Positions 3,200-50,247 of a DNA stretch of 64,000 bases are shown here, piece by piece. The position numbers and the translations under genes are program-made. The first letter of the stretch is position 1, and every line of letters begins with the position of its first letter. The notes beneath the pieces were generated by a model, which saw only the letters and a list, made by a program, of their open reading frames with translations, did not search any database and was not told where the DNA came from. This stretch comes from a candidate division WOR-3 bacterium (GTDB lineage Bacteria; Hydrothermota; 32-111). The stretch is from contig JBDRZU010000001.1 of the NCBI GenBank assembly GCA_039804105.1, positions 1 through 64,000 of the forward strand, read 5' to 3'.

Positions 3200-3222
3200 A
3201 AGGAGGGGAACTACCCCTCCTT
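3200..3222 (+). terminator. Hairpin between rplL and rpoB (probable attenuator or processing site)
   Basis: AAGGAGGGG-AACTA-CCCCTCCTT perfect 9-bp stem; weak U-tract on + strand. Confidence 0.55.
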
Positions 3223-3248
3223 CACAACAAAAAAGGAGTTGTGATTAA

Positions 3249-14849: not shown

Positions 14850-15214
14850 TGGATTTTGATTCGATCCTAAAAGATAGTGGCGAAAAAATAACAGGATGTG
14901 TTGCAGTTTCACTTGTTGGAACTGATGGTATAGCTCTCGCTTCTTACACAAAATATCCTCAAGCAGATCTATCTCTTGCAGATGCAGAACTCGCAACACT
15001 TGCGATAACAGCTGAAAAAATTTCAAAAGAGATAGGTGCTGGTGAAATGGCTGAAATTATACTCATTACAGGAAAAATGACCATTGTTACTGGTATGATA
15101 GGGAAGGATTATTATATCTATTATGCTTTAACTGGAAAAGAGCAGAATGTTGGACTTGCAAGATATGAGATCAAAAGGTTAGCAGGAGAACTTTCCCCTG
15201 TTCTTTATGGTTGA
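14849..15214 (+). CDS. Roadblock/LC7 (MglB-like) domain protein
   Basis: About 120 aa, AVSLVGTDGIALA and NVGLARY motifs; GGAGG SD; overlaps upstream stop. Confidence 0.85.
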   Translation: MDFDSILKDSGEKITGCVAVSLVGTDGIALASYTKYPQADLSLADAELATLAITAEKISKEIGAGEMAEIILITGKMTIVTGMIGKDYYIYYALTGKEQNVGLARYEIKRLAGELSPVLYG

Positions 15215-34052: not shown

Positions 34053-35651
34053 ATGAAAAGATTAACTTTCATTCTGTTGTTGGTACTTTTTTTTATTATA
34101 CCTTTTCTTTTGATATTTCAGTACGATATATATTCATACCATGTATGGACATACAACTCCCTAAAATTTGGACTCGATGAAATTTATAACAGAAACAACT
34201 ATTTTGACAGGTTCTGTGATTATCTTCCGTTTGGTTCTTATATAGCGATTTTTCAAGGAAAGATTATCTCTTTGTTTATACCTTTGAAACTTCTGTCGGT
34301 TCCATATTTGAATTTTTATAAAATTTTCCCTCTCCTTGTACTTTTTTCTCTCTTTATTTTTCTTTATAAAGAAAAAATACCTTTATTCAAGATTGTACTT
34401 TTGATCATTCCATTCTATATTTCTATCGTCTCAAATGGTCAATTTGATATAGTTATTCTGTTTTTGATTTTTGTTTCTATCTTTCTCTTTGAAAAAAAAG
34501 ATTTTGTTTGTGGAACTTTTATATTAACTTTACTTTTTTTCAGTAAACAAACTGCACCCTTTTTTGTGTTGCTTATATTTCTTCATTATTTGAAAGAAAA
34601 TTTTAATAAAGTTTTTTTCTTTAAAACCCTTTTAACATTTTTGGGAACAACATTTTTAATGTTTTTTCCATTTATTATTACAGGAAAGCTTTTTGCAACT
34701 TTGAGGTTGATATATGAAAATTCAACATACATGTTGCCATTTTCAGGTTATTCCTTTAACCTTCTTTCAATTCTTTCCTACAATCATAACCTGGATCCAA
34801 CGAAAAACTATTTTAACCTATCTTTAACTTCGTATTCCTTACTTTTAATGATTACAGGGTTAACCATTATAGGACTTTTTGTAACGGGAAATGTTTTTAA
34901 AAAATTATCTTTATTCTCTTTAATCTGGTTCAATCTACTTGTAGGATTGCGAGAGAACCACATACTTTATCCATTATTCTTTTTGTTTTTTTCGATTGAT
35001 GGAAAAAGCAAAGGATTTAAACTTTTATTTTTACTGTTCTACTTTATGTCTATATTCAATATAATTTTTTTCTTTTTTAATTTTCTTAGTAAAACCATTT
35101 TTTTAATTTTTTCATTTATATCAGTTTTTTCATCATTTATACTTTTTGTTTTGATATTCAGAAAAAATTCCCAACATTTATCAATCACACGTATAAATTT
35201 TTTGAAAGATTTTTCATTTATTTTCGTATCGTTTATTTTTCTTGTTGTGTTTATGCCTTTAAAAAATTATGATAGAACGGAAAAAAATTTTTTTGAACAC
35301 GTGATAAAGTCAAACGATATTGTTGAATTTTCTAAGGATAGGTTCATAGATCTTAATGTTAAAACTTATTCCCCATTTTCACATTTTCTATCTTTAAGGA
35401 TGTCGGATCTTTCTTACATAAAATTTAAAAACTTTAACTCAAAATACAAAAATTTGAAGATCTTTCTTGATGTTGAAGGGAATGATTTCGCTGAATTGAT
35501 AATAAATGATTCTTTAAAAATAATAGTTAAAAAGGGTAAAAATCAGTTTGTAAAATTTAATGATATATTGATTTTAAATGATACAATATTTTTAAAATCA
35601 AAAACATTTAGAAAAAGAGCAAATCTTTTAATCTATAATGTGACATTTTAA
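34053..35651 (+). CDS. Polytopic membrane protein, probable GT-C glycosyltransferase (GT87/mannosyltransferase-like)
   Basis: YDIYSY..W, CDYLP, NGQFD, SKQ, RENHILYP motifs; many TMs. Confidence 0.6.
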   Translation: MKRLTFILLLVLFFIIPFLLIFQYDIYSYHVWTYNSLKFGLDEIYNRNNYFDRFCDYLPFGSYIAIFQGKIISLFIPLKLLSVPYLNFYKIFPLLVLFSLFIFLYKEKIPLFKIVLLIIPFYISIVSNGQFDIVILFLIFVSIFLFEKKDFVCGTFILTLLFFSKQTAPFFVLLIFLHYLKENFNKVFFFKTLLTFLGTTFLMFFPFIITGKLFATLRLIYENSTYMLPFSGYSFNLLSILSYNHNLDPTKNYFNLSLTSYSLLLMITGLTIIGLFVTGNVFKKLSLFSLIWFNLLVGLRENHILYPLFFLFFSIDGKSKGFKLLFLLFYFMSIFNIIFFFFNFLSKTIFLIFSFISVFSSFILFVLIFRKNSQHLSITRINFLKDFSFIFVSFIFLVVFMPLKNYDRTEKNFFEHVIKSNDIVEFSKDRFIDLNVKTYSPFSHFLSLRMSDLSYIKFKNFNSKYKNLKIFLDVEGNDFAELIINDSLKIIVKKGKNQFVKFNDILILNDTIFLKSKTFRKRANLLIYNVTF

Positions 35652-35654
35652 TTC

Positions 35655-35683
35655 TTGATTATTTAAAGAATCTCAATTATAAT
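35655..35683 (+). promoter_or_regulatory. sigma70-type promoter of hutHUI
   Basis: TTGATT-N17-TATAAT followed by AAGGAG SD. Confidence 0.65.
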
Positions 35684-35710
35684 AAAAATCTAAATAAAAA
35701 AAGGAGAAAA

Positions 35711-37231
35711 ATGGTTTTACTTGATGGTTTCAATCTTGATCTTTTTAAATTCAAAAAAATCGTTTTTGATCTTGAAGAGGTAAAAATATCAGATTCCGCT
35801 TTAGAAAGAGTCAAAGAGTCGTACGACATCATTGAAGGAATTGTGAAAGAGAATAAAAGGGTTTATGGAGTAACAACCGGATTTGGAAAACTTGTTGATG
35901 TAACGATCCCTAAAGATAAAATTGAAGTTTTACAGGAAAATATTTTAAGATCACATTCGGTGGGAGTGGGAGAACCGTTTTCATTTTTTGAAGTCAGAGG
36001 AGCGATCCTTTTGAGAATTAATACTATTATTAGAGGAAACAGTGGAGTTTCACTTGAAACTTTAAATGGGTTGATACAGATTTTAAACAAAAGGATATAT
36101 CCCTATGTTCCTCAAAAAGGTTCTGTTGGAGCAAGTGGTGATCTTGCGCCTTTGGCACATATAGCACTGGTTCTGATAGGTGAAGGTGAATGTATTGAAA
36201 ATGGTAAAAGGGTGAAGAGTATAAAAGTTTTAAATAAAAATAAAATTAAACCTGTTAAATTGAAACCAAAAGAAGGACTCGCCTTAATAAATGGAACTCA
36301 GATGATGACATCAATTGCAGGATATTCTCTTGTGAAAGGTGAAATACTTTTGAAACTTTCAGATATTGTAGCAGCGGCATCGGCAGATGCTTTGCTTTCA
36401 ACTGATGTTCCATTTGAAAAGAGAATTTCAAATATTAGAAACCATCAAGGGCAAATTGATAGTGCTTACAACATTTACAATCTTTTGAAGGGATCAAAGA
36501 TAAGAAAATCTCACAAGAACTGCTCAAAGGTTCAGGATCCATATTCGATCAGGTGTATACCACAGGTTCATGGTGCCGCAAGAGAAGTTTTTTATTTTGC
36601 GAAAGGTGTAATAGAAAAGGAGTTCAACTCTTCAACGGATAACCCTCTCGTATTTACAAAAGAAAAAGAGGTAGTTTCGGGTGGTAATTTCCATGGTCAG
36701 ATAATCGCAACAGTTTTAGATTCGTTGAAAATAGGTTTATGTGAACTTGGTAACATTTCCGATAGAAGATTGTATAGATTACTTGATCCTATACAAACTG
36801 GACTTTATCCCTTTTTAATAAAAGATGTTGGCATCAACAGTGGTTTTATGATGCTACAGGTCACAACGGCGTCACTTGTATCAGAGAACAAAGTCATTGC
36901 TCATCCTGCAAGTGTTGATTCTATACCAACCTCACTTGGACAGGAAGACCATGTTTCAATGGGAACGATTTCAGCAAGAAAACTTAAAGATGTAATTGAA
37001 AATAATTTTTATATACTTTCTATAGAACTTTTTGCTGCGATGACAGCTTTGTATTTAAGAAAACCCCTTACAAGTTCAAAACCTTTGAATGAACTGATGA
37101 ATTGGTTCTTTGAAAATATAAAACCTATAAACGATGATAGAGCTTTCTATCTTGATGTTGAAAAGATTTTTGAGATGACATATTCTGGTAAAGTTGTTGA
37201 AAAGGTTGAAAATTATTTAAAATTAAAATAG
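35711..37231 (+). CDS. hutH: Histidine ammonia-lyase
   Basis: [12 protein letters not shown] motif [36 protein letters not shown]. Confidence 0.97.
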
Positions 37232-37239
37232 GAGTTTTT

Positions 37240-38898
37240 ATGAGAGAATATAAACCTATACATGCCCCAAGAGGAACAAAACTTTCTTGTAAATCCTGGC
37301 AACTTGAGGCACCGATGAGAATGCTTATGAACAATCTTGATCCGGATGTTGCAAAAGATCCTGAAAATCTAATAGTTTATGGTGGAAGGGGAAAAGCGGC
37401 AAGAAACTGGGAATCATATTATAAAATTATTGAGACATTACAGAATATGGATAACGATGAAACATTGATAATGCAATCAGGAAAACCTGTTGCTGTTTTC
37501 AAAACACATGAATGGGCACCAAGAGTTTTGATAACAAACTCTTTACTCGTTCCGAAATGGGCAACACTCGAAGAATTTTTAAGATTGGAATCGATGGGAC
37601 TCACATGTTATGGGCAAATGACTGCTGGTTCATGGATCTATATTGGAACTCAGGGGATACTCCAGGGTACTTATGAAACATTTTATGCTATAGCAAAAAA
37701 ACTTTACGGTGGGACATTAAAAGGGAAATGGGTTTTAACAGCAGGACTTGGAGAAATGGGAGGTGCACAACCACTTGCTGCTGTTATGAACGATGGAGTT
37801 GTTATAGTTGTTGAAGTTGATGAATCACACATAGATCGAAAAATAGCCCAAAGATATTGTGATGTCAAAGCGAAATCGCTTGATGAAGCATTAAAGATGA
37901 AAGATCAAGCACTCAAAGAGAAAAAACCACTTTCGATTGGACTTTTAGGTAATATTGCTGATATTTTACCTGAACTTGTTAAAAGGGAAATATATCCTGA
38001 TGTTTTAACTGATCAAACAGCAGCACACGATCCTTTGTATGGTTATATTCCATCAGGTTATTCTGTTGAAGAAGCTGCTGTTCTTAGAGAAAAGGATAGA
38101 AATGAATATTTGAAAAAAGTTTATGATTCGATAGCAAAACATGTGGAAGCGATGTTAAAAATGCAGGAAAAGGGAGTTAATGTTTTTGAATATGGAAACA
38201 ATTTGAGACAGAGAGCTTTTGATAACGGAGTGAAGGATGCTTTCAAAATAGTTGGTTATATGCCTGCTTATATAAGAGATCTTTTCTCAGAAGGTAGTGG
38301 TCCTTTTAGATGGGTAGCGTTGACAGGTGATGAAAAGGATATTTTTGAAACTGATAAAGCATTACTTGAAACTTTCCCTGAAGATGAACATTTAAGAAAA
38401 TGGATTGAGATGGCAGAAAAACTTGTGAGATTTCAGGGACTACCTGCAAGGATCTGCTGGTTAAAACAAGGGGAACGAGCTAAATTTGGTCTTGTGATAA
38501 ACGATATGGTCAAAAAAGGAAGATTATCTGGTCCCGTTGTTATCGGAAGAGATCATCATGATACAGGTGGTGCAGCATCACCAAATCGAGAAACGGAGGC
38601 GATGAAGGATGGTTCAGATGCTATTGCTGATTGGCCAGTTTTAAACGCTATGCTGAATGTTGCATCTGGAGCAACCTGGGTTTCTTTGCATCATGGTGGT
38701 GGTGTTGGAATAGGTTATTCGATTCATGCTGGACAGGTTATACTTGCTGATGGAACAGAAATTCAGGCAAAAAAGATTGAAAGGGTTTTAACAAACGATC
38801 CTGGACTTGGGGTTGTAAGACATGCTGATGCAGGTTATCAGATAGCTATAGATACGGCAAAAAAAGAAAAAATAAAAATGCCAATGCTTGAAAAATAG
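37240..38898 (+). CDS. hutU: Urocanate hydratase
   Basis: [39 protein letters not shown]. Confidence 0.98.
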
Positions 38899-38901
38899 AT
38901 T

Positions 38902-40134
38902 ATGAAAATGATTTTAAAAAACATTAAACAGATTGTTTCATGTGATGATAAAAAGGGTTTTGTTACGCTGGATGATATCGATTCACCTTTATCTTCAGCA
39001 AATACTATAGTGATAGAGGAAGGAAAAATAAAAAGGATTGGAAAAGATCTTGAAGAAACAGCAGATAAAACAATAGATTGCTCTTTATATATTGTGACTC
39101 CCGGTTTTGTTGAATCACATACACATCTTGTTTTTTCTGGTTCAAGATCTGATGAGTTTTTGATGAGAGCACAGGGGGTTCCTTATAAAGAGATTGCAAA
39201 AAATGGTGGTGGGATAAGAAAAAGTGTAAGGTTCACAAGAGAAGTCAGTTTCGAAAAACTTTTTGAGGAATCAAAAGAACGATTAAAAAAATTTTTAAAG
39301 AAGGGAGTAACGTCGATTGAAATAAAATCTGGATATGGACTTGACAGGGATACAGAGTTAAAACAGTTAAGGGTGATCAAAGAGTTAAAAAAATCTTTTC
39401 CTATGGAGATTAGATCAACATTTTTGGGAGCACATGAGATACCTGATGAGTTTAAAGATAGAAGAGAATACTATATTAAATTTTTAAAAGAAGAGATGAT
39501 CCCTTATGTGGCACAGGAAGGACTTGCTGATTTTATAGATGTTTTCTGTGAAAAGGGAGTTTTTACAAAAGACGAGGCAATTGAAATCCTTGAAAAGGGA
39601 ATCGAATATGGACTAAAAGCAAGAGTTCATGCTGATGAGATAGAGAACTCCGGTGGTTCTTTTGTCGCAAGAGAGGTGAAAGCAAAATCAGTGGATCATT
39701 TCAACTATCCAGACGAAAATGATCTTAAGTATCTTAAAGAAAACAACACTGTTATAACACTTCTGCCTGCTACAAATTTCTTTTTAAAATTAAAAGGTAG
39801 ACCACCAATCGAAAAGATGAGAGAAGTTGGGAATATCGTTGCTATATCAACGGACTTCAATCCCGGGTCTTCTCCATGTTATTCGATGCTTTTTTCAGCA
39901 ACGATCGGTATGATAAATTATGGTTTAACATATGAAGAACTTATTTATGGAATAACTTTGAACCCAGCTTTTTCACTTGATCTAAAAAATAAAGGTTCTA
40001 TTCAAGAGGGTCAGGATGCGGATATTTTGCTGTTTAAAAGAGATGATTACAAAGAACTTTTCTATTTCACTGGAGATGATCAACCTGATCTTGTCATTTT
40101 AAAAGGGGAGATATTGGATTTTGGAAAAATTTAA
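38902..40134 (+). CDS. hutI: Imidazolonepropionase
   Basis: HTHLVF, EIKSGYGL, TFLGAH, DVFCE, HADE, TDFNPGSSP. Confidence 0.96.
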   Translation: MKMILKNIKQIVSCDDKKGFVTLDDIDSPLSSANTIVIEEGKIKRIGKDLEETADKTIDCSLYIVTPGFVESHTHLVFSGSRSDEFLMRAQGVPYKEIAKNGGGIRKSVRFTREVSFEKLFEESKERLKKFLKKGVTSIEIKSGYGLDRDTELKQLRVIKELKKSFPMEIRSTFLGAHEIPDEFKDRREYYIKFLKEEMIPYVAQEGLADFIDVFCEKGVFTKDEAIEILEKGIEYGLKARVHADEIENSGGSFVAREVKAKSVDHFNYPDENDLKYLKENNTVITLLPATNFFLKLKGRPPIEKMREVGNIVAISTDFNPGSSPCYSMLFSATIGMINYGLTYEELIYGITLNPAFSLDLKNKGSIQEGQDADILLFKRDDYKELFYFTGDDQPDLVILKGEILDFGKI

Positions 40135-40924
40135 AGAACTGATTAATGAAGGCAAAAATATTGAATCATTAACACAAAGAAGTGAATTTTTTATCGATCT
40201 TTTCTCTAAGTTAAAATACAAAGATTATTATGGATCGATTATAGTGCTATACAATCTTTTCGATATTTTTGAGGATAGATTTCAGGTTATTTTTCATCTG
40301 TTCAACCATTTTTTATATTTAAAACTTTATACGGAAGGATTGAATTTTGTGAAATACATGGAAGAGAGAAAGAATGATTTTTTTGCACTATCTTTGAAAT
40401 ATCGATTACCCGACAATTTTTCAGATAAAAGTATTGAAGAGTTAAAAAAAAATTTAAATCTTTTAAGTCAAAAAAAAGATGTTATGAGTTCTTCTTACTA
40501 TGAACTTGCAGTCAGATCTAGAGGTTTGATAGATAGTGATATAAATGATGTTTTTTTCAGAAAAGCGATAGATTGTTCATCAGATGATGCTAAAATCAGA
40601 GTGATTTTAAGATATTCTGATATCCTTTTAAAAGAAGGTAAAGAGCAAAAATCGATAGAGATTTTAACCTCTTATATAAATGAACTTGATAGTGATTTCC
40701 TTCAACTTATGTATAAACTCGCTTCAATATATGAGTTACAAGATGGGAGGAAAGCATTAGAGGTTTACGAAAAAATTTTGAAATATGATCCTGATTTTCT
40801 TGATGTTCAAGAAAAAATAAGTAAATTGACAAATCAAATAAAAGGGTATAATATTAAAAATATTGAAGATAATGTTGATCTACAAAGAGAGGATCGAAAT
40901 GAAAATCATATTCACTTTTTATAA
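40121..40924 (+). CDS. TPR-like protein, apparent degenerate paralogue of the C-terminal part of 41796..43916
   Basis: LMYKLASIYE...ALEVYEKILKYDPDFLDV..KI; ends IHFL; TTG start overlapping hutI. Confidence 0.7.
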   Translation: MEKFKELINEGKNIESLTQRSEFFIDLFSKLKYKDYYGSIIVLYNLFDIFEDRFQVIFHLFNHFLYLKLYTEGLNFVKYMEERKNDFFALSLKYRLPDNFSDKSIEELKKNLNLLSQKKDVMSSSYYELAVRSRGLIDSDINDVFFRKAIDCSSDDAKIRVILRYSDILLKEGKEQKSIEILTSYINELDSDFLQLMYKLASIYELQDGRKALEVYEKILKYDPDFLDVQEKISKLTNQIKGYNIKNIEDNVDLQREDRNENHIHFL

Positions 40925-40934
40925 GTGAGGATTT

Positions 40935-41783
40935 ATGAATTATGAGTCATTCTTTCAAATGTCTTTCGAACCTTTTGCAAATATTCCCGATACGAGATTC
41001 TTTTTTGAAACCAATCAACATAGGATGGCTCTTTTAAGGTTGATGCATGCTGCTGACAAAATGAGAGGTTTTGCTCTTTTGGTTGGAGATGTTGGAACAG
41101 GCAAAACTACAGTAGCAAGAAAACTCCTTGCATATCTTACTAGAAATCCAAAATTTCAAACAGGTCTTATTGTGCTCACACATGAAAATTTTTCTGAAGA
41201 ATGGCTTTTCACAAGGATCGCACAGATAATAGGGTTAAAGGATACGACAAACCTTATGAAGGACCCGATGAACATACTCACAAGACAACTTATAAATCTT
41301 GATAGGGAAGGTAAAAAAACTGTAATCCTTATAGATGAAGCGAACAAACTTTCTGATAGTAGAATAGTTGAACAGATCAGAGGTTTTTTGAACCTTGAAC
41401 TGAACGATCGTAGAATCATAACCTTTATACTCATAGGAGTTCCTGAACTTGAAAGACATATACTTCAGAATGAATCTTTACAACAAAGGATTGCGGCAAG
41501 AACCTATCTGAAATCACTCTCAAGAGAAGAAACTTATGGTTATATAAAATACCGATTATCTGTTGTTGGAGCTAACATCTCATCTATTTTTACACCTGAC
41601 AGTATAGATCTTATTCATTCATATTCAAACGGACGTCCGAGGCTGATAAATACTATTTGTGATAATGCTCTTCTGGAAGCAGCTTTTTTGCAGAGGGTTC
41701 CTGTTGACTCGATGATGATCGAAGAGGTGTCTGAATCACTTGGGCTTAAAAAACAATTTGGAAACTTTAAAAGGGAGCTATAA
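40935..41783 (+). CDS. ExeA/GspA-family AAA+ ATPase (stand-alone), copy 1
   Basis: Y..FF....EPF...PD..FF, GDVGTGKT, LIDEAN, LQQRI, GRPRLINTICDNALL. Confidence 0.9.
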   Translation: MNYESFFQMSFEPFANIPDTRFFFETNQHRMALLRLMHAADKMRGFALLVGDVGTGKTTVARKLLAYLTRNPKFQTGLIVLTHENFSEEWLFTRIAQIIGLKDTTNLMKDPMNILTRQLINLDREGKKTVILIDEANKLSDSRIVEQIRGFLNLELNDRRIITFILIGVPELERHILQNESLQQRIAARTYLKSLSREETYGYIKYRLSVVGANISSIFTPDSIDLIHSYSNGRPRLINTICDNALLEAAFLQRVPVDSMMIEEVSESLGLKKQFGNFKREL

Positions 41784-41795
41784 GAGGTAAAACCT

Positions 41796-43916
41796 ATGGC
41801 AACTTTAAGTGAAGCTAAAGAAAAAGCGTTACAACTCGAAAAGAGTGGAAGATTTGAGGATGCTATAAAAATCTATATGAAAATTATTGCGGCGACGAAG
41901 GGACAGCCGGATCCTGCAATCTATAATAAAATTGGTGATCTTTACATTAACAATTTAAAGAAAAAGTCTGAAGCTATTGAAAACTACAGAATGGCAATGA
42001 ACATTTATGTTCAACAGACATGGTTCCCCCTTGCAATAGCGATGGCAAAAAAGATTATCAAACTTGATCCTGATCAACTTGAAATGTATGAAACTGTTGC
42101 TGATCTACAAAAGAGAGCAGGTTCAATTGGAGAGGCGTTGAATTCTTATATTCTTTTTGCAGAAAAAGCGATTCAACAGAAAAACATAACGATGGCCATA
42201 GAGGGTTTCAAAAAAACACTTGAACTTGTTCCAGAGAAGGTGGAGATAAAAGAAAAACTTATAGATCTTTACATTCAGGAAAACAATCTTGAGTTTGCGC
42301 TCGAATACTTAAAAGATGTTGAATCATTTTATTTAAAGAGAGGAGATTTACCTCAAGCATCGATGACGAGGAAAAGAATCTCTCAGATAGAATCGAAACT
42401 TGGAATAAAAAAAGAAGAAATAAAGGAACCAATCAAGGAACCTCCGAAATTTGAGGAGAAAAAGAAAGAGATTATTGAAGAGAATCTTGAAGTGGATCTA
42501 ACTGAACTCACCGAAGATTTAGCAAAGCAACTCGATGAAACATTCTCAGGGGATATTTTTGAAACAAAGTCAGAACAGAAGGAAGAGAAAAAAAATCTTG
42601 AAGAGGAAAAATTTGAAGATATCTCTTCAATATTCAAAGAGGATGCCACAAGTATAGAATCTTATGTTGAACTTGGGAAACTCCAGGAAGATCTCGATAT
42701 AAAGAGCGCTATTGAATACTATTATCAGGGTGCTGAAGCATATTATAACGCTGGGAATTTTAAAAGAGCACTTGAAGTTTATACAAGGATCTTCGAACTC
42801 GATAATGAACAAAAAATCGCTTCTGAAAAAATTATTGAACTTTCAAACAAGACCGGTGATTTTAAAGGTGCTATAATGGTTTTTCTTTATTTTGCTAACA
42901 AGGTTAAAAATGAATCAAAAGAAAAAGCAAAATATTACATAGATACGATTTTGAAAGTTGATCCAACCAATAAAGAAGCTTTAAAAATAAAAGGCGAAAT
43001 CGAGCAGGTAAGTACAGTCTTTGAAAAACCTGTTTTTGAGGAACCCAAAAAACCGGTTGAAAAACCTCAACAGACAGTTGTTCCAAAACAGCAGAAAGAA
43101 GAAAAAGTTGAGGACTTCCTTACGTCCTTCAAAGAGGATGTTTTAAAAGAATCTGAAAGTTTTGATATATTCAAAGAGAGTGAGCATTTAACAGCTGCTG
43201 ATATTCTCAAAGGCAAGAATGAAGGTGGTAAACCAAAGTTTAAAGTTGAGGAGGGACAAAAAGAGGCCAAAGATGAGTCCTTCTGGTCTTTACAGGAATT
43301 GCTCGACGAGTTAAAAGATGGGCTCAATCAAAACATTTCAGAGGAGGATGTATCGAGTCACTATGATCTTGGTTTATCCTTTAAAGAGATGGGGCTGTAT
43401 GATATGGCTATTGAGGAGTTCCAAAAATCTGTAAAGAATAAAGATTTTGAAATGAAATCACTTGAAATGCTCGGGCAATGTTTCCTTGAAAAAGGGGAAC
43501 TTGATCTTGCGGAAGAAAGTTTGATAAAAGCTCTGTCGATGAAAGGAAAAGCGGAGATTGAGTATCTGGGTATAAAATATACTCTTGGAAAACTTTATGA
43601 AAGAAAAAATATGTTCAAAGAAGCCCTAAAACTTTACAATGAAATCTATGCTGTTGATTCGAAGTTTGAAGATGTAGAAAAAAGGATAAACACTCTGAAA
43701 AATTTAACAAAGCAGGTTGAAAAACCTAAAATGGAAGTATCAGGTAAAAAAGAGGAAACGAAAAAGGAAGAGTTCATTGATTTCTCCTCAATTTTAAAAC
43801 AGGAAATAGGAGAAGATTTCAATCTTGATGATTTTAATGTTGATGAATTCAACATCGATTCTTTTGATGATTCAAAAAGTGATAAAGGTAAAAATAACAA
43901 AATAAGTTATATGTGA
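41796..43916 (+). CDS. Large TPR protein with acidic linker (SgmX-like architecture)
   Basis: N-terminal TPR array; C-terminal SHYDLGLSFKEMGLYDMAIEEF TPR block; ends KISYM. Confidence 0.8.
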   Translation: MATLSEAKEKALQLEKSGRFEDAIKIYMKIIAATKGQPDPAIYNKIGDLYINNLKKKSEAIENYRMAMNIYVQQTWFPLAIAMAKKIIKLDPDQLEMYETVADLQKRAGSIGEALNSYILFAEKAIQQKNITMAIEGFKKTLELVPEKVEIKEKLIDLYIQENNLEFALEYLKDVESFYLKRGDLPQASMTRKRISQIESKLGIKKEEIKEPIKEPPKFEEKKKEIIEENLEVDLTELTEDLAKQLDETFSGDIFETKSEQKEEKKNLEEEKFEDISSIFKEDATSIESYVELGKLQEDLDIKSAIEYYYQGAEAYYNAGNFKRALEVYTRIFELDNEQKIASEKIIELSNKTGDFKGAIMVFLYFANKVKNESKEKAKYYIDTILKVDPTNKEALKIKGEIEQVSTVFEKPVFEEPKKPVEKPQQTVVPKQQKEEKVEDFLTSFKEDVLKESESFDIFKESEHLTAADILKGKNEGGKPKFKVEEGQKEAKDESFWSLQELLDELKDGLNQNISEEDVSSHYDLGLSFKEMGLYDMAIEEFQKSVKNKDFEMKSLEMLGQCFLEKGELDLAEESLIKALSMKGKAEIEYLGIKYTLGKLYERKNMFKEALKLYNEIYAVDSKFEDVEKRINTLKNLTKQVEKPKMEVSGKKEETKKEEFIDFSSILKQEIGEDFNLDDFNVDEFNIDSFDDSKSDKGKNNKISYM

Positions 43917-43917
43917 T

Positions 43918-44736
43918 ATGGATTACAACAACTATTTTGGTTTTAATCTGGCCCCATTTTCAAGTTCTCCTGATGAAAGATTCTACTACAATTCTCCTTA
44001 CCATTCGAAAGCTATAATCAAACTTTTACATGTTGTTGAGCAAAGAAGGGGACTTGCTGTTTTGATAGGAGATATCGGTACAGGAAAAACAATGATATCA
44101 AGGAAACTTCTTGACTATTTTTCATCTAAGAGTGATATTTTTGAAGTTTCCCTTCTTGTGATAATACATTCGGAAATAACAGCTGGTTGGCTTTTAAAAA
44201 AAATTGCTATCCAACTTGGCGCTAAAGTTGAAACCGATGACAAGATAGATATAATAGGACATGTTTATAAGCAACTCTCCTATCTTAAAGAGAAGAGAAA
44301 AAGACCTGTTGTTATGATAGATGAGGCGAATATGTTAAAGAGCAAAGAGATAATGGAAGAGTTGAGAGGGCTTTTGAATATAGTTGATAATGATGGACAT
44401 CTGATTACCTTTCTCCTGTTTGGAATGCCTGAAACCGAAGAAAATTTAAAACTTGACCCACCACTTTACGAAAGGATAAGTGTGAAATTGACATTGAATC
44501 CTCTCGATCTTGAATCAACCATAGGATATATAAACCACAGGATCAAAATAGCTGGAAGAGAAGAACCTCTCTTTTCTGCTGGTGCTATGCAACTCATACA
44601 TACATTTTCAAAAGGTAAACCAAGGTTGATCAACACTATCTGTGATAACGCTTTACTTGAAGCGTTTATCGAAAAGAAAAAGTTCATCGATGAGGATATA
44701 ATCAAACAGATATCTTCGGATATGGGCTTGAAATGA
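43918..44736 (+). CDS. ExeA/GspA-family AAA+ ATPase (stand-alone), copy 2
   Basis: YFGF...PFS.SPD..FYY, GDIGTGKT, MIDEAN, GKPRLINTICDNALL. Confidence 0.9.
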   Translation: MDYNNYFGFNLAPFSSSPDERFYYNSPYHSKAIIKLLHVVEQRRGLAVLIGDIGTGKTMISRKLLDYFSSKSDIFEVSLLVIIHSEITAGWLLKKIAIQLGAKVETDDKIDIIGHVYKQLSYLKEKRKRPVVMIDEANMLKSKEIMEELRGLLNIVDNDGHLITFLLFGMPETEENLKLDPPLYERISVKLTLNPLDLESTIGYINHRIKIAGREEPLFSAGAMQLIHTFSKGKPRLINTICDNALLEAFIEKKKFIDEDIIKQISSDMGLK

Positions 44737-45545
44737 ACAATATCATTGCAGATTTACATATACACTCAAATTATTCTGATGGCAACCTTTCTGTTGAAGA
44801 TATATGCAAACTTTTAAAGATAAAAGGGATAAAATATTTTTCGATAACCGATCATGACTCAAATAGATCTTACGAAGATGCGAAGTTTAATTCAAAAAAA
44901 TATGAACTTGAATATTTCCCCGGGATCGAATTCTCAACAGTGCATAAAAAAAGGCAGGTTCATATACTATTTTATGGAAAAAACATGACGGAAATCGGAA
45001 AAGAACTTGAGTTGAGAAAAAATGATAGATTTTCAAGAATATTGAAAATGGTTGAACTTTTGAAAGGATTCAACATAAATATAGAAAAAGAGGATCTTTT
45101 TTTCGAAGCAAAATATTCTGAATCGATCGGGAGACCTCATCTTGCAAGGGTTATGGTGAAAAGAGGTTTTGTATCAAATCTGAAAGAAGCTTTTGAAAAA
45201 TATATAGGTGATGATAAACCTTGTTATGTTCCCAAAAAGGAGTTCTCAGTCAAAGAAACTGTTGATATGATTCATAACTATAAAGGGTTAGCTGTTCTTG
45301 CACATCCTTATGAAAATAATGTTGTTGAATTTATAGATGAGATTATAGATTATGATATAGATGGTATAGAAGTTTTTTCACCAAAAAACAATCAGTTCAA
45401 TATCGAGTTTCTACGAGAAAAAGCGTTTAAAAATTCTTTGTTGATAACCGGTGGTACAGATTTCCATGGTGATGGAGAATACCAAAAGTATGGGTTGAAC
45501 AGTTTGAATTTTGAGGAATTCTATAATGTATGGAGGAATTTATGA
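44733..45545 (+). CDS. PHP-domain metal-dependent phosphoesterase (TrpH/YciV-like)
   Basis: DLHIHS..SDG, ITDHD, GIE, GRPH, LAHP, GGTDFHG. Confidence 0.92.
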   Translation: MNNIIADLHIHSNYSDGNLSVEDICKLLKIKGIKYFSITDHDSNRSYEDAKFNSKKYELEYFPGIEFSTVHKKRQVHILFYGKNMTEIGKELELRKNDRFSRILKMVELLKGFNINIEKEDLFFEAKYSESIGRPHLARVMVKRGFVSNLKEAFEKYIGDDKPCYVPKKEFSVKETVDMIHNYKGLAVLAHPYENNVVEFIDEIIDYDIDGIEVFSPKNNQFNIEFLREKAFKNSLLITGGTDFHGDGEYQKYGLNSLNFEEFYNVWRNL

Positions 45546-46747
45546 ATATAGAACTTTTAAAAAGTTTGATTCAACAGAATGAAAAAAAGATGTTACTTGT
45601 AATACTCGATGGAGTTGGAGGAATACCTGATAGCTCAAAAATGACTGAACTTGAAAAAGCAAATAAGAAAAATATGGATGAACTTGCAAAGAATAATGAT
45701 CTTGGATATATGGTTCCTGTTGATATAGGGATAACACCGGGTAGTGGCCCCGGTCATCTTGCTGTATTTGGCTATGAACCAACGGAATACCCTATTGGTA
45801 GGGGTATACTTGAAGCGTTGGGACTCGATATAAAGATAGATGAAAAAACCGTTACTGCAAGATGCAATTTCGCTACAATGAATACAGAGGGTAAAATAAT
45901 CGATAGAAGAGCTGGAAGGATATCAAGTGAAGAAAATATAAGATTAGTAAAAAAATTGAACGAGAATTTTAAAGATTTTGGGAAATATAAAGTTGAATTC
46001 TATTCAGGGAAAGAACATCGATTTGTCCTTGTGGTGAGAGGTATTGAAAACGATGCCTATGTTAACGATACGGATCCACAGGTTGTGATGGAAAAACCTT
46101 TAAAAGCAAAATCGATCAAAGGGAATAGTGAAGAATGTGCTAATATAATAAATGAAATCTTTGAAAAAAGTTTGAAAATTTTAAAAGATGAACAAAAAGC
46201 TAACTGTATACTTTTTAGAGGTATTTCAAAAATGCCGTCAATAGAACCATTTAAAGATCGTTATGGATTAAACCCGGCATGTATAGCCACCTACCCTATG
46301 TATAAAGGATTAGCATCATTGGTTAAAATGGATATTTTGAAAACAGGAGAAACTTTAAAAGATCAGATAGAAACTTTAAAAGAAAATTATAATAAGTATG
46401 ATTTCTTCTTTTTTCATGTTAAAAAGACAGATTCCTATGGAGAGGATGGTGATTTCGAAAATAAGACTAAAGTGATAGAAGAGTTTGATAAACTTCTTCC
46501 AGAAATACTCTCTCTTGATTTTGAAGTTGTTGCGATAACTTCAGATCATTCAACCCCATCGGTAATGAAAGCACACTCATACCATTATGTTCCTTTACTT
46601 TTCATCAACAAATACCCAAGACCTGTTGATGTTAAAGGTTTTTCAGAAAGAGAGTGTTTGAAAGGATCGATTGGAAAAATCTATTCAAAAGAACTTATAG
46701 TTTTGATGCTAGCTGCTTCATCCAAATTGAAGAAGTTTGGTGCATGA
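45542..46747 (+). CDS. apgM: Cofactor-independent phosphoglycerate mutase, ApgM type
   Basis: ILDGVG, TPGSGPGHL, GRGILEALG, HVKKTDSYGEDG, TSDHSTP; GGAGG SD favours ATG 45542. Confidence 0.93.
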   Translation: MNIELLKSLIQQNEKKMLLVILDGVGGIPDSSKMTELEKANKKNMDELAKNNDLGYMVPVDIGITPGSGPGHLAVFGYEPTEYPIGRGILEALGLDIKIDEKTVTARCNFATMNTEGKIIDRRAGRISSEENIRLVKKLNENFKDFGKYKVEFYSGKEHRFVLVVRGIENDAYVNDTDPQVVMEKPLKAKSIKGNSEECANIINEIFEKSLKILKDEQKANCILFRGISKMPSIEPFKDRYGLNPACIATYPMYKGLASLVKMDILKTGETLKDQIETLKENYNKYDFFFFHVKKTDSYGEDGDFENKTKVIEEFDKLLPEILSLDFEVVAITSDHSTPSVMKAHSYHYVPLLFINKYPRPVDVKGFSERECLKGSIGKIYSKELIVLMLAASSKLKKFGA

Positions 46748-47616
46748 TGAAAAAGTCAGGATATGTTTCTATAATTGGTAAACCAAATACAGGTAAATCA
46801 ACACTTTTGAACAGAATTTTAAAAGTTAATATTTCTGCTGTAAGTAAAAAAGCTCAGACAACAAGAGCTGCTGTTCTTGGTATATATAACGATGAATCTT
46901 CCCAGATAATCTTTTATGATACTCCAGGAATAATAAAGAGTAAAAATCTATTAGAAGAAGAAATGATGAACGATATTGAAAGGGTACTCAAGGGATCAGA
47001 TATAATAATCTATATCCATGATAACAAAAACTGGGTGGATGATAAAATAGAGTTTAAAAAAAAGAAGGATACTGTTGAACTTGTTGTTTTGAATAAAATC
47101 GATCTGATAACCCAGGAAGAAGCAAACATGATTTTAAATAATCTAAAAGAAAAATATTCTCTTGAAGTCATACCTGTTTCAGCTTTAACGGGATATAACA
47201 TCGATAAGTTAATAGAAGAGATAAAATCTAAACTTCCCCACGATATCTTATTTTACCCTGAGGATATGATAAGTGAAAAACCCGAAAGATTTTTTGTCGC
47301 TGAATTTGTAAGACAGATTGTTTTTGAAACATACGGACAGGAAATTCCATATTCAACTGGTGTTATAATTGATGAGTTCAAAGAAAGGGGAGATGGAAAG
47401 GATTATATAAAAATCATTCTTCTTGTCGAAAGAGAATCACAAAAGAAAATTCTTATTGGTGAGAAAGGAAAGATGATAAAAAAGGTTGGAATAGAATCAA
47501 GAAAACTTATAGAAGATTTTTTGGAAAGGCCTGTTTTTCTCGAACTTGTTGTAAAAGTTTCACCCGATTGGAAAAATAAAAAAAATATTATAAGAAAAAT
47601 GTGGGAACAGATATAG
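46744..47616 (+). CDS. era: GTPase Era
   Basis: GKPNTGKST, QTTR, DTPG, NKID, QEIPY, KH domain; start re-set to the ATGA overlap with apgM. Confidence 0.96.
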   Translation: MMKKSGYVSIIGKPNTGKSTLLNRILKVNISAVSKKAQTTRAAVLGIYNDESSQIIFYDTPGIIKSKNLLEEEMMNDIERVLKGSDIIIYIHDNKNWVDDKIEFKKKKDTVELVVLNKIDLITQEEANMILNNLKEKYSLEVIPVSALTGYNIDKLIEEIKSKLPHDILFYPEDMISEKPERFFVAEFVRQIVFETYGQEIPYSTGVIIDEFKERGDGKDYIKIILLVERESQKKILIGEKGKMIKKVGIESRKLIEDFLERPVFLELVVKVSPDWKNKKNIIRKMWEQI

Positions 47617-47639
47617 AGAGGTTTTTACCTCTCTATATC
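47610..47639. terminator. Hairpin between convergent genes (probable terminator)
   Basis: GATATAGAGAGGT-TTTT-ACCTCTCTATATC, 13-bp perfect stem overlapping the era stop. Confidence 0.7.
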
Positions 47640-47655
47640 ATTATTGGGAATATAA

Positions 47656-48870
47656 TTATTTTACATAATCCGAAATAACATCAGCAAGTCTTTTGACACC
47701 TTCAACTATCTCTTCTTTTGTTGGATATGAAAAGTTGACTCTGAAAGAGTTCTTTTTGTTTCCATGCGCATAAAAAGCACTTCCCACAACGTATGCTACA
47801 TTTTTTTCTATTGCAAATTTAAACATTTCATCACAATCATAACCCTCAGGTAAAGAAACCCACAAAAACAATCCACCATCAGGTTTTGTCCATTTTATCC
47901 CTTTGTTTTTTGGCATGTATTTTTCAAGTGATTCAAGCATAAGTTCATTCTTTTCCTTATAAATTGATATAGTCCTTTCAACTGTTTTTTTCAGAAGTCC
48001 TCTGTTTAAGAATAATGCTGCTATGAACTGATTAAATGGAGGTGTGCAGAGATCTGTTGCCTGTTTTGCTACTATGAATTTATCGATTATCTCTTTCGGA
48101 GCAACAGCCCAACCCAATCTGAATCCTGGAACAAATATTTTACTAAATGTAAACAAGGCGATAACAAGGTTATTTTTGTCAAGTGAAAGAAGTGAAGGAA
48201 TATTTTCGTTTCTGTATCTTATCATTCTGTACGGAGAGTCCTCTATTATCATAATTTTTTCTCTTGTGGCTATTTCAAGTAACTCTTTCCTTCTTTTTAA
48301 TGACATCGTTACACCTGCTGGATTATGAAAATCAGGGATAACATATATGAATTTTGGTTTTATTTTTTCTTTTTTTAACCTGTTTATCGTCAAGTCAAGA
48401 AGATCTGTTTTGATACCCTCTTCATCGAGTTCAACATCGACCATTCTGCTTCTATAACTGTTGAAAGCACTGATGGCACCAACATAGGTCGGAGATTCTA
48501 CAATGCAGGTATCCTGTGGATTCAAGAAGATTTTTCCGACAAGGTCAAGTCCCTGCTGACTTGCAATAGTTATACTGATATTCTCCTCTTTTACAGATAC
48601 ATTTTCACTCTCTTTCATAAGTTTTATCAGTTCTGAAAGAAGCATTGGAAGTCCTTCTGTTGAACCATATTGCAAGGCCTTTGCTCCATATTTGTCATAA
48701 ACTTCCTGTGTTATTGTTTTTAGCTCTTCAACAGGAAACGACTCTGTTGATGGGAGCCCTCCAGCAAAAGATATTATCCCTTCTTTTTGGGTTAATTTTA
48801 ATAGTTCTCTTATGACCGATCTTTTCATCGATTTAATGTTATCTGAAAAAAGTTCTTCATAATTTATCAT
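47656..48870 (-). CDS. PLP-dependent class I/II aminotransferase (LysN/ARO8-like)
   Basis: ISFAGGLP, FHNPAG, EDSPY, TFSKIFVPGFRLGW; promoter TTGATA-N17-TAAAAT at 48900-48928. Confidence 0.93.
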   Translation of the reverse strand: MINYEELFSDNIKSMKRSVIRELLKLTQKEGIISFAGGLPSTESFPVEELKTITQEVYDKYGAKALQYGSTEGLPMLLSELIKLMKESENVSVKEENISITIASQQGLDLVGKIFLNPQDTCIVESPTYVGAISAFNSYRSRMVDVELDEEGIKTDLLDLTINRLKKEKIKPKFIYVIPDFHNPAGVTMSLKRRKELLEIATREKIMIIEDSPYRMIRYRNENIPSLLSLDKNNLVIALFTFSKIFVPGFRLGWAVAPKEIIDKFIVAKQATDLCTPPFNQFIAALFLNRGLLKKTVERTISIYKEKNELMLESLEKYMPKNKGIKWTKPDGGLFLWVSLPEGYDCDEMFKFAIEKNVAYVVGSAFYAHGNKKNSFRVNFSYPTKEEIVEGVKRLADVISDYVK

Positions 48871-48933
48871 AAATAACTCCTTTTATTGTAATATTCAAAA
48901 TTTTACCTTAAATCTTCTTAAATATCAAGAATT

Positions 48934-50247
48934 TTATTTTAGAAGATTTTGTAAAGAATCATATAAAAGTTCAGAAATGAGTTCAAATCCCAAATAGTTG
49001 TTGTGACAGTCATCAACAAAATATTTGCTTTTATCATCTTTCTCGTTAAAAAATTTCTCAAGATCTATTAGTTTTATTCGATATTCTTTTGAAATTTTTC
49101 TCAAAATCTCATTATAAATCGCAACATTTTTTCTAAAATCTTTTTCACTTTTGTATTGTTTTATGTTATAAGGTCTTGTCAGTAGAACAATTTCAAATTT
49201 CTTCTTTTGAGATAAATTTACAAATTCAAGAATATTATTTTCATAGTCCTGAAGGGATACTCTTGGAAGATCATCGAGCCCTTTTTTTGAAGATAATTTT
49301 ATTTTTTGTGATACGATAAATTTTACAAAATAATAGTTTTTTAAGTGACCATAAAAATGTAACAAAACGGTTGGAAATTTTCTGTATTTATCGTATCCAT
49401 AAAAAAATGTTGAAGCATCATTCCATCCAAAGGAAACGACTAAAATATCTGGAGAAAATTTTAATATGTAATGTTTAAACCTTAAAAGTCCCTGATAGGA
49501 AGTGTAACCTGTGACTCCAGCATTTATAACTTTAATATTATTCCTCCCTACATTTTCAAATCTTTTCTGAAGAAGATAAGGAAAAGAATGGATATCTTCA
49601 CCTTCAGTGTTGGAATCACCTATGCAAAAGATTCTAAACTCACCCTTAACTTTCTTTGTATTTTGGAGTTCTCCTTTAAAACCAAACCTGTTATATGGAT
49701 ATTCACCCCTTATCGGTTCCCAGAAAAAAATTGGGTTGAATATCAAATGTAAATTGTCTGTAACTTTGATCAGAAGATCTATATCGTTTGTTAAAAATTT
49801 TGTATCAATATCTTTAAACCTTTCATTTATAACTGAGATATCCTCAATGTCATCTGAAATTTTAAGAGTGTATATTGGAGAGTAGAGTTTAATTTTATCA
49901 AAATAAATCAACCAGAAAAAAATAAATTCCAATAAACCAAAAAAAATTATAATTGTTGATATAAACTGGGAAATTAGGATAAAATAATTCTTTTTATACA
50001 ATGTTTTTAAAACATTGTAAAACTTTTTTTGTGTGATAAAAACTAAAATCGAAAAAAATATAATAATGATTGTAAAGATTAACTTAAGTTTTCCATTTAA
50101 AAAAGGATTTAAAATGTATCTTAAGAAAAAAAGTGTAACAAGAAAAATTGCTGTTGAGAGTTTATAAAGTTTGTTCTGGTATTTTAAAAAGAGGAAAGGA
50201 GAAATTAAAAAAAAGAATAATATGATGATTTCAACAACATGTATCAT
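48934..50247 (-). CDS. Membrane-anchored SGNH/GDSL hydrolase-family protein
   Basis: GDSNT, NAGVTGY, FGWND, DDCH blocks after N-terminal TMs; start placed at ATG 50247 by promoter geometry. Confidence 0.85.
   Translation of the reverse strand: MIHVVEIIILFFFLISPFLFLKYQNKLYKLSTAIFLVTLFFLRYILNPFLNGKLKLIFTIIIIFFSILVFITQKKFYNVLKTLYKKNYFILISQFISTIIIFFGLLEFIFFWLIYFDKIKLYSPIYTLKISDDIEDISVINERFKDIDTKFLTNDIDLLIKVTDNLHLIFNPIFFWEPIRGEYPYNRFGFKGELQNTKKVKGEFRIFCIGDSNTEGEDIHSFPYLLQKRFENVGRNNIKVINAGVTGYTSYQGLLRFKHYILKFSPDILVVSFGWNDASTFFYGYDKYRKFPTVLLHFYGHLKNYYFVKFIVSQKIKLSSKKGLDDLPRVSLQDYENNILEFVNLSQKKKFEIVLLTRPYNIKQYKSEKDFRKNVAIYNEILRKISKEYRIKLIDLEKFFNEKDDKSKYFVDDCHNNYLGFELISELLYDSLQNLLK

Follow-up and report, generated by a model that had tools for sequence, protein, structure and literature searches.

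We have analysed a 64,000-nt window of DNA from a candidate division WOR-3 bacterium (GCA_039804105.1, contig JBDRZU010000001.1, positions 1-64,000) and find that it holds two copies of a conserved two-gene unit, in which a gene for a tetratricopeptide repeat (TPR) scaffold of the SgmX family is followed by a gene for an ExeA-like ATPase. The unit is represented by four consecutive open reading frames (ORFs) on the plus strand, TPR-A, ATPase-1, TPR-B and ATPase-2, separated by 10, 12 and 1 nt and standing in the order given by the original prediction. Module 2, TPR-B with ATPase-2, is the canonical pair, and module 1, TPR-A with ATPase-1, is a divergent paralogue that occurs only in WOR-3/TA06-like lineages, with which the ancient duplication is shared. 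The scaffolds characteristically end in a short C-terminal peptide which, in the sampled loci, is present only where the ATPase is present. The explanation that we favour overall, with a little better than even confidence, is that of two anciently diverged scaffold-ATPase modules in which this tail docks on the neighbouring ATPase. Overall, a gene pair that is known but has hardly been studied is present here in a duplicated and partly reduced form.

The pairing of scaffold and ATPase was surveyed across bacteria by using an ATPase alignment to scan a single genome of each species, which gave 547 confirmed stretches and 79 kept loci, ORFs being called as the longest non-overlapping frames of at least 70 amino acids (aa). 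These loci derive from Nitrospirota, Thermodesulfobacteriota, Myxococcota, Bdellovibrionota, Methylomirabilota, Goldiibacteriota, FCPU426, Omnitrophota, TA06 and unnamed lineages. The 79 loci yielded 79 called ATPases, 76 of them with an upstream ORF, and a same-strand SgmX-like TPR gene occupied that upstream position in 69 of the 76. Seven exceptions were observed: the TPR gene is cut off at the contig start (L026), an antisense ORF was chosen by the caller (L035 and L044), the ATPase follows a gene of 395-398 aa (L030 and L031), the ATPase is a second copy (L090) or the upstream 346-aa protein is not seen as SgmX-like by phmmer, yet ends K-R-I-S-F-L (L033). The remaining neighbours vary, including TamB/TamA-like genes, mutL-miaA-hfq, patatin and PHP, and the only constant element is the TPR-ATPase pair. 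Myxococcota loci have the pair preceding TamB/TamA-like genes, in accord with the available text of PMC3983030. The L033 protein (Omnitrophota, locus positions 3217-4257) combines an acidic linker, a TPR-like C-terminus and the tail upstream of its ATPase, and its Cys/His-rich N-terminus resembles a zinc ribbon when the sequence is inspected by eye.

A second survey, in which 61 genomes of one myxobacterial class were searched with the SgmX model, detected SgmX above the family cut-off in 22, genuine scores being 1840-2092 bits. In all ten loci returned, an ATPase of 312-323 aa lies directly downstream (E ∼1e-67 to ATPase-1) and the SgmX protein ends K-A-R-K-V-G-Y-[LV]. A downstream ExeA-like ATPase and a [KR]-[IV]-[STG]-[YF]-[ILVM] end, which are outside the published definition of SgmX, both occur with TPR-B, and TPR-A has the ATPase together with a variant tail. 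The sgmX operon of Myxococcus xanthus consists of MXAN_5766 (SgmX), MXAN_5765 (ATPase) and then TamB/TamA-like genes, and ATPase-2 is the counterpart of MXAN_5765. Similarly to M. xanthus sgmX, TPR-B has a homologous N-terminal part, a C-terminal domain of the MglA-binding type, an ATPase gene immediately 3′ and a comparable tail, K-I-S-Y-M corresponding to K-V-G-Y-[LV]. In contrast, TPR-B is 706 rather than ∼1060 aa long, two modules are present instead of one and TamAB genes do not follow. According to the available text of PMC3983030, Bdellovibrio Bd2492 is an MglA-binding TPR protein and reported SgmX homologue encoded before TamAB-like genes; unlike the scaffolds described here it is 353 aa long, and no ATPase gene is reported to intervene. 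The available literature makes only passing mention of the ATPase that follows sgmX and gives it no phenotype.

The tail is a strongly conserved property of the scaffolds found upstream of the ATPases, a point that the original prediction had proposed to check in TPR genes 5′ of ExeA genes. A [IV]-x-[YF]-[ILVM] end is present in 67 of the 69 upstream TPR proteins and the strict [KR]-[IV]-[STG]-[YF]-[ILVM] form in 64, with a consensus of K-K-[DN]-R-[IV]-S-Y-[LIV], or K-K-[DN]-R-[IV]-S-[YF]-[LIV]-COOH for gene 1 of the module in general; the exceptions are L061 and the TPR-A orthologue of L025, which ends Q-F-S. Only 6 of the 722 other ORFs in the same loci carry the motif, and all six are SgmX-like or upstream of an ATPase: four are SgmX-like genes (L045, L049, L083 and L089) for which the scan places an ATPase directly downstream that the ORF caller missed, the fifth is the TPR-B orthologue of L025 at a contig end and the sixth is the L033 protein. 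Among the 1945 ORFs of at least 100 aa in the genome containing the window, the strict motif occurs once, in TPR-B, and the loose motif eight times, TPR-A and TPR-B included. The codons of the tail vary synonymously, serine being encoded by TCT, TCC, TCG, TCA or AGT and arginine by six codons, and the spacing to the start of the ATPase gene lies anywhere between −47 and 294 nt (median 20). This combination of synonymous variation and variable spacing means that selection acts on the tail peptide, and on the same grounds the possibility that the tail is an embedded ribosome-binding site for the ATPase gene was ruled out. The predicted ends of the two window scaffolds, IHFL in TPR-A and ISYM in TPR-B, were confirmed, and they belong to two flavours: module 2 tails (7/7) have Y at −2, S or T at −3 and K or R at −5, and module 1 tails have mostly F at −2, a variable −3 and often a non-basic −5. 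In the searches made and the available passages on SgmX and Bd2492, neither the tail nor the cross-phylum pairing was found to be described.

The association of tail with ATPase was further investigated in relatives of the C-terminal part of TPR-B. An exhaustive, profile-free search with residues 490-706 returned 12,159 proteins at E ≤ 0.001, and the tail is present in 44 of the best 150 of these matches, many of the others stopping right after the last TPR. For the tail-less branch, 22 tail-less proteins were aligned and metagenome contigs scanned, giving 513 confirmed stretches and 80 kept loci. The tail was found in none of the 59 SgmX-like proteins with a complete C-terminus, a downstream ATPase in none of the 56 having a downstream ORF, and no ATPase homologue was detected anywhere in the 80 loci, which are GC-rich and in which the ORF caller sometimes takes antisense ORFs. 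The same distinction is observed within single genomes: in six genomes of one phylum a single tailed protein is followed by the ATPase (6/6), and 21 other, weaker TPR matches in these genomes have neither tail nor ATPase. Some further support for the association comes from divergent scaffolds which retain tail and ATPase together, namely the TPR-A family (12/12) and the L033 protein, and from P0295, a natural fusion of 1019 aa (one among the 42 longer forms found) whose SgmX-like part continues directly into the ATPase without linker or tail. Weak SgmX-model matches of 1077-1165 aa in three myxobacterial genomes, which have Lys-rich ends and no ATPase nearby, were rejected as tail-less relatives, as homology was too weak (E ∼1e-5).

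Each ATPase is a stand-alone AAA+ protein of the ExeA-like kind, in which the Walker motifs are intact and the fold is of the TnsC/MuB/ORC type. They are paralogues, identical at 107 of 273 residues (39%, E 7e-76), and AAA_22 is the sole Pfam domain of each (E 3.8e-18 in ATPase-1, 1.1e-18 in ATPase-2). As claimed from the sequence earlier, neither contains a transmembrane stretch in 19-residue Kyte-Doolittle windows (maxima 0.99 and 1.51) or a Pfam match to a peptidoglycan-binding domain. Across both copies and 18 relatives there is no variation in Walker A, Walker B or the conserved Arg columns. Scores to TIGR03015, the XrtA/PEP-CTERM system-associated ATPase, are 182.2 and 181.7 bits, below the cut-off of 324.5. 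Close homologues are labelled by their sources 'predicted ATPase ExeA' or 'general secretion pathway protein A'. Similarity to ExeA/GspA of Aeromonas type II secretion and to the COG3267 'ExeA-like' ATPases lies in the AAA_22 P-loop and the P-R-L-I-N...C-D lid motif; in contrast to ExeA/GspA, the window ATPases have no transmembrane segment, peptidoglycan-binding or SPOR domain, and no ExeB/GspB or secretin neighbour. Longer forms of the classical ExeA type, which carry SPOR, PG_binding or BON domains, share only 27-37% identity. In profile comparison the closest relatives of solved structure are TnsC (E 4e-9), MuB and Cdc6/ORC, and the AlphaFold2 model of ATPase-2 (predicted local distance difference test, pLDDT, 94) resembles TnsC (Foldseek TM-score 0.69-0.70), MuB (0.66) and ORC/Cdc6 (0.59-0.71), such that the AAA+ core and lid fold are similar to those of initiator-clade AAA+ proteins. 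No transposase or replication-origin context is present in the window neighbourhood. Four ATPase-2 homologues (P0287-P0289 and P0291; 47-48% identical) carry an N-terminal response-regulator receiver domain, confirmed in P0288, a sequence feature which hints at phosphorylation control of the ATPase in some lineages. Myxobacterial-type ATPases (downstream in L112-L121, where they are 312-323 aa long; P0290, P0292-P0294) are longer, with a low-complexity C-terminal extension ending in their own conserved helix-like D-L-A-E-I-D-R-Y-L-E-G-L-G-K-L, an extension missing from both window ATPases.

TPR-B is a short, cytoplasmic SgmX-family scaffold. It matches several TPR families in Pfam and both ends of the SgmX model NF052243, its N-terminal TPR block and C-terminal three-TPR domain corresponding to those of SgmX, the latter in sequence and fold only. 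The SgmX assignment of the original prediction thus holds for TPR-B at the family level and not as full-length membership, the overall match (E 9.5e-32) reaching 110.2 bits against a cut-off of 1800. Neither TPR-A nor TPR-B matches positions 180-865 of the model, which contain the middle, FrzS-binding TPRs. According to the available texts of PMC9811614, PMC7668184 and PMC11580455, the N-terminal TPRs of Myxococcus SgmX activate pili, the middle TPRs bind the FrzS receiver domain and TPRs 12-14 (the 'M domain') bind MglA-GTP. The three-TPR domain and its capping helix are modelled confidently by AlphaFold2 (residues 492-706; pLDDT 95-99), whereas linker and tail are poorly defined (pLDDT 52-74), and Foldseek relates this model to consensus TPR proteins and to three-TPR peptide binders (Hop, CHIP and SGT). 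The linker that follows shows no consensus in alignment A3 of the homologues and is therefore not conserved; it is acidic as originally described (18 acidic and 10 basic residues in 62), whereas that of TPR-A is only mildly so (5 acidic and 4 basic in 24).

TPR-A is a lineage-specific mini-scaffold with its own N-terminal domain, the last SgmX-type repeats, a short linker and an I-H-F-L tail. It has only a sub-threshold Pfam match, to TPR_6, and none to NF052243; the SgmX N-terminal block is absent and the C-terminal domain reduced to its last repeats, which is the extent to which the SgmX assignment survives for this protein. The last repeat proposed to be common to both scaffolds is real, residues 105-241 of TPR-A aligning to 503-639 of TPR-B with 41 of 144 identical (E 2e-6), which is above chance, though TPR repeats inflate such scores. 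Comparison of the TPR-A family with the module 1 TPR protein of L039 by hhalign gave a probability of 94% across residues 158-237. The family comprises 12 proteins, the nearest named members being labelled candidate division WOR-3 and TA06, and I264, H265 and F266 are invariant in all 12, nine of which add L or I and three of which end at F. Residues 1-100 (window 40121-40420) are also conserved in 12/12 orthologues, with invariant residues including H59, F61, N62 and H63. This N-terminal part has no Pfam, NCBIfam or profile relatives, and only the last repeats align when TPR-A is compared by hhalign with the module 1 TPR proteins of L084 and L039. In a protein atlas the N-terminal part falls into generic TPR clusters only, the top one of which carries the EccA1 N-terminal TPR family (score 0.95), a lead only.

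These observations are consistent with a mechanism in which the tail would be a flexibly tethered hook docking on the neighbouring ATPase, as the original prediction had supposed for each scaffold and its cognate enzyme. Such a hook might allow the ATPase to load, release or recycle the scaffold in a nucleotide-dependent manner, by analogy with TnsB on TnsC and MuA on MuB, which both act through their C-termini, and the two tail flavours could keep the two scaffold-ATPase pairs apart. As described in the available text of PMC9371665, a C-terminal hook of 15 residues, carried on a disordered linker that is not conserved, attaches TnsB to TnsC filaments, and MuB is stimulated by the C-terminus of MuA. 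The ATPase fold is closest to those of TnsC, MuB and ORC/Cdc6, and the partner has the same composition of folded body, non-conserved linker and short conserved C-terminal peptide. In contrast to TnsC and MuB, no transposase or mobile element is involved here, identity is 12-20%, and docking is drawn by analogy; it is plausible, though unproven. Complex prediction that paired ATPase-2 with the C-terminal 40 residues of TPR-B, both entered as alignments, gave scores of 0.31 and 0.29 relative to a mark of 0.32, without controls, and counts neither for nor against docking. The arrangement may also provide the 'two parallel switches' of the original prediction.

Several observations weigh against tail docking and a role in pilus control. 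In a FastTree phylogeny of 131 C-terminal domains the tail state needs three changes, only one of which is forced by well-supported branches, and the counts given above are of sequences, not events; the contrast between tailed and tail-less scaffolds could therefore stem from a single gain or loss, and may rest on very few evolutionary events. The ATPases of L030 and L031 follow a gene unrelated to SgmX, and the divergent extra copy in L090 has no TPR neighbour. Module 1 tails are degenerate, as seen in the three TPR-A orthologues ending at F and in the L025 orthologue, and TPR-B lies far below the SgmX cut-off without a match to the FrzS-binding middle. The available reports on Myxococcus point in the same direction: mxan_5765 inactivation left S-motility unaffected (PMC7668184), transposon insertions in MXAN_5765-5761 caused no developmental defect (bioRxiv 10.64898/2026.08.28.747804), C-terminal green fluorescent protein (GFP) and mCherry fusions of SgmX, in which the free tail is buried, are 'mostly functional', and a mimB truncation without the C-terminal domain, a gain-of-function allele, restores motility without MglA. 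The ATPase mutants, fusions and mimB allele indicate that tail and ATPase are not needed for pilus activation itself. Because of these phenotypes, any role is more likely regulatory, in turnover, timing or release, or concerns another scaffold function.

The main rival, which we consider unlikely, is that the tail binds a TPR groove, either in cis as autoinhibition or in trans as self-assembly, in the manner of the EEVD-like peptides bound by Hop, CHIP and SGT, and that the ATPase acts otherwise. The C-terminal domain of TPR-B is predicted to fold like Hop TPR1/TPR2A, CHIP, SGT/Sgt2 and RPAP3, all of which are bound by C-terminal peptides, although consensus TPR proteins outrank these peptide binders in Foldseek, indicating that the likeness is generic. 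The last five residues of the monomer model have a pLDDT of 69, compared with 52-55 in the linker, and SgmX is reported to self-interact in the available text of PMC11580455. Conversely, the tail-less branch retains a highly conserved C-terminal domain, which therefore does not need the tail, and it is the ATPase rather than the domain that tail presence tracks.

The genome (1.81 Mb, estimated 85% complete) contains six T2SSE-family ATPases over cut-off, a pilB-pilB-pilT-pilC-pilS-pilR cluster with two prepilins and a single secretin, on contig 2. A Roadblock gene adjoins a small Ras/Arf-like GTPase gene in an mglB-mglA-like order, the Roadblock protein scoring 81 bits to the MglB model, below its cut-off of 200. 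The search proposed earlier for mglA/mglB and pilB/pilT was thus positive, and the objection that pilus or MglA machinery is lacking does not apply; with the two TPR C-termini aligning and the tail conserved, nothing that was named in advance as overturning the original prediction was observed. Through the MglA-binding-type domain, the scaffolds would likely tie the MglA/MglB pair to the type IV pilus machine or to some other machine at the pole. At 14894-15097 on the plus strand, inside a 128-aa open frame, the window also contains a weak Roadblock/LC7 match that stays below threshold (E 1.3e-4, 22 bits). On contig 1 of G000, at ∼759,000-771,000 (L022), genes for a methyl-accepting chemotaxis protein, CheW, CheY, CheA and CheC/X are followed on the same strand by genes for a 902-aa TPR protein, a DUF4388-TPR protein, three Roadblock proteins, one with a TPR-like N-terminal part, and another TPR protein; L022 may be a second polarity module coupled to a Che pathway.

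It is improbable, in our estimation, that the pair has no pilus or polarity role here and serves another envelope or polar process, the likeness to SgmX being one of scaffold architecture only. Such a role elsewhere would accord with the Myxococcus ATPase knock-outs, with the position of the Myxococcota pair before TamB/TamA-like genes, with the unrelated neighbours in other lineages, with the low score of TPR-B and with the lack of an adjacent pilus gene in the window. It would also accord with the Vibrio mannose-sensitive haemagglutinin (MSHA) type IV pilus system, in which an ExeA-like ATPase gene, mshM, similarly stands beside a TPR gene, mshN, a likeness of gene arrangement; according to the available text of PMC4624765, deletion of either left pilus production unchanged. 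The MSHA genes differ in that the ATPase precedes the TPR gene and both lie inside a pilus operon. However, the two parts of TPR-B that are conserved best correspond precisely to those with which SgmX activates pili and binds MglA, the genome possesses MglA/MglB-like genes and a full pilus gene set, and the membrane and peptidoglycan-binding parts used by ExeA in secretin assembly are missing from the ATPases.

The age of the duplication was investigated with a tree of 83 ATPases (maximum likelihood, quick search, LG+G4). In one group ATPase-1 is joined by the first ATPases of L025, L026, L039, L084, L093 and L027 (7 rows, SH-like approximate likelihood ratio test, SH-aLRT, 90) and in another ATPase-2 by the second ATPases of L026, L039, L084 and L093, plus L095 and L101 (7 rows, SH-aLRT 95), the ATPase-2 group nesting with the main SgmX-linked clade. 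As the two clades each span tandem loci, the tandem arrangement is old and common to several uncultured lineages. The first scaffold in L084 and L093 has 607-613 aa and has kept both SgmX-like ends, and in the lineage of the window it is the 267-aa TPR-A. The tandem duplication that had been predicted therefore stands as two copies of one unit, head to tail, but not as a recent event, the split between the ATPases being ancient. A recent local duplication with chance likeness of the C-termini and no functional tail has a negligible probability, as the head-to-tail order and tiny gaps that favour it are outweighed by the low identity of the ATPases, by the two clades containing other lineages of the same tandem order (L026, L039, L084 and L093) and by retention of the tail in 67/69 homologues and 12/12 TPR-A orthologues, the ATPase tree and tail conservation together ruling it out.

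The features of the region are collected in Table 1. Upstream of TPR-A lie hutH, hutU and hutI and downstream of ATPase-2 lie the PHP gene, a phosphoglycerate mutase gene and era; no secretion or pilus gene was found among the window neighbours of the four-gene run, in agreement with the earlier statement that type II secretion and MSHA genes are not adjacent. The PHP gene is a neighbour only, as nothing in the data supports its membership of the module. A PHP gene also follows the second ATPase in the related tandem loci L039 and L084, a PHP-like ORF is present in 4 of 58 ATPase loci, and the window protein has sub-threshold NCBIfam matches to 3′,5′-nucleoside bisphosphate phosphatase and RNase RNM. 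Histidine-utilisation genes occur directly 5′ of an SgmX-like gene in distant lineages, in the window (35711-40134), in L039, L084 and L093 and among the tail-less loci, L127 and L128 included. The ORF that immediately precedes the SgmX-like gene encodes a hutI-like amidohydrolase in the window, in L039 and in 28 of 45 metagenome loci of the tail-less branch, and hutU or hutH is found in 20 of the 45. Scans of positions 35000-49000 gave 70 promoter-like sites, relative to 54.4 ± 6.7 in shuffles, and 3 terminator-like sites, relative to 6.1 expected, both results being uninformative on operon limits.

Table 1. Positions in the window of the two scaffold-ATPase modules, their parts and the adjoining genes
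Feature	Positions	Strand	Size or description	Basis
hutI-like amidohydrolase (context only)	38902..40134	+	adjoins TPR-A upstream, 3′ end overlapping TPR-A start	
TPR-A	40121..40924	+	267 aa, TTG start	ORF call
TPR-A region homologous to the TPR-B C-terminal TPR domain	40433..40843	+	residues 105-241	
TPR-A tail, I-H-F-L	40910..40921	+		ORF call; orthologue alignment
ATPase-1	40935..41783	+	282 aa	ORF call
TPR-B	41796..43916	+	706 aa	ORF call
TPR-B N-terminal TPRs	41820..42347	+	NF052243 positions 8-179	E 4.2e-14
TPR-B C-terminal three-TPR domain and capping helix	43263..43748	+	NF052243 positions 866-1030	E 1.4e-17
TPR-B linker	43704..43898	+	low-complexity, mainly acidic	composition; pLDDT 52-74
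TPR-B tail, K-I-S-Y-M	43899..43913	+	canonical [KR]-[IV]-[STG]-[YF]-[ILVM] end	motif survey
ATPase-2	43918..44736	+	272 aa	ORF call
PHP-domain phosphoesterase (context only)	44733..45545	+	4-nt overlap with ATPase-2	Pfam

SgmX is the central activator of type IV pili in Myxococcus, and the ATPase encoded downstream of it is without phenotype. A pair and tail conserved across phyla pose a concrete and cheap question, whether the peptide binds the ATPase and changes its activity, and make it worthwhile to seek less obvious phenotypes, in reversal timing, scaffold turnover or polar residence time, for instance. With its two copies the module lends itself naturally to testing pair specificity, and TPR-A is a minimal construct for structural work. 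Tentatively, and with rather less than even confidence, we propose that K-K-D-R-[IV]-S-[YF]-[LIV] could be a universal hook of SgmX-family scaffolds for a TnsC/MuB-like partner which assembles or strips them at the pole, WOR-3/TA06-like lineages having two orthogonal pairs, I-H-F with ATPase-1 and K-I-S-Y-x with ATPase-2. If true, these bacteria would possess two separately controlled MglA-responsive scaffolds, the widespread MXAN_5765 family would acquire a function and bacterial front-rear polarity would include an ATP-driven step.

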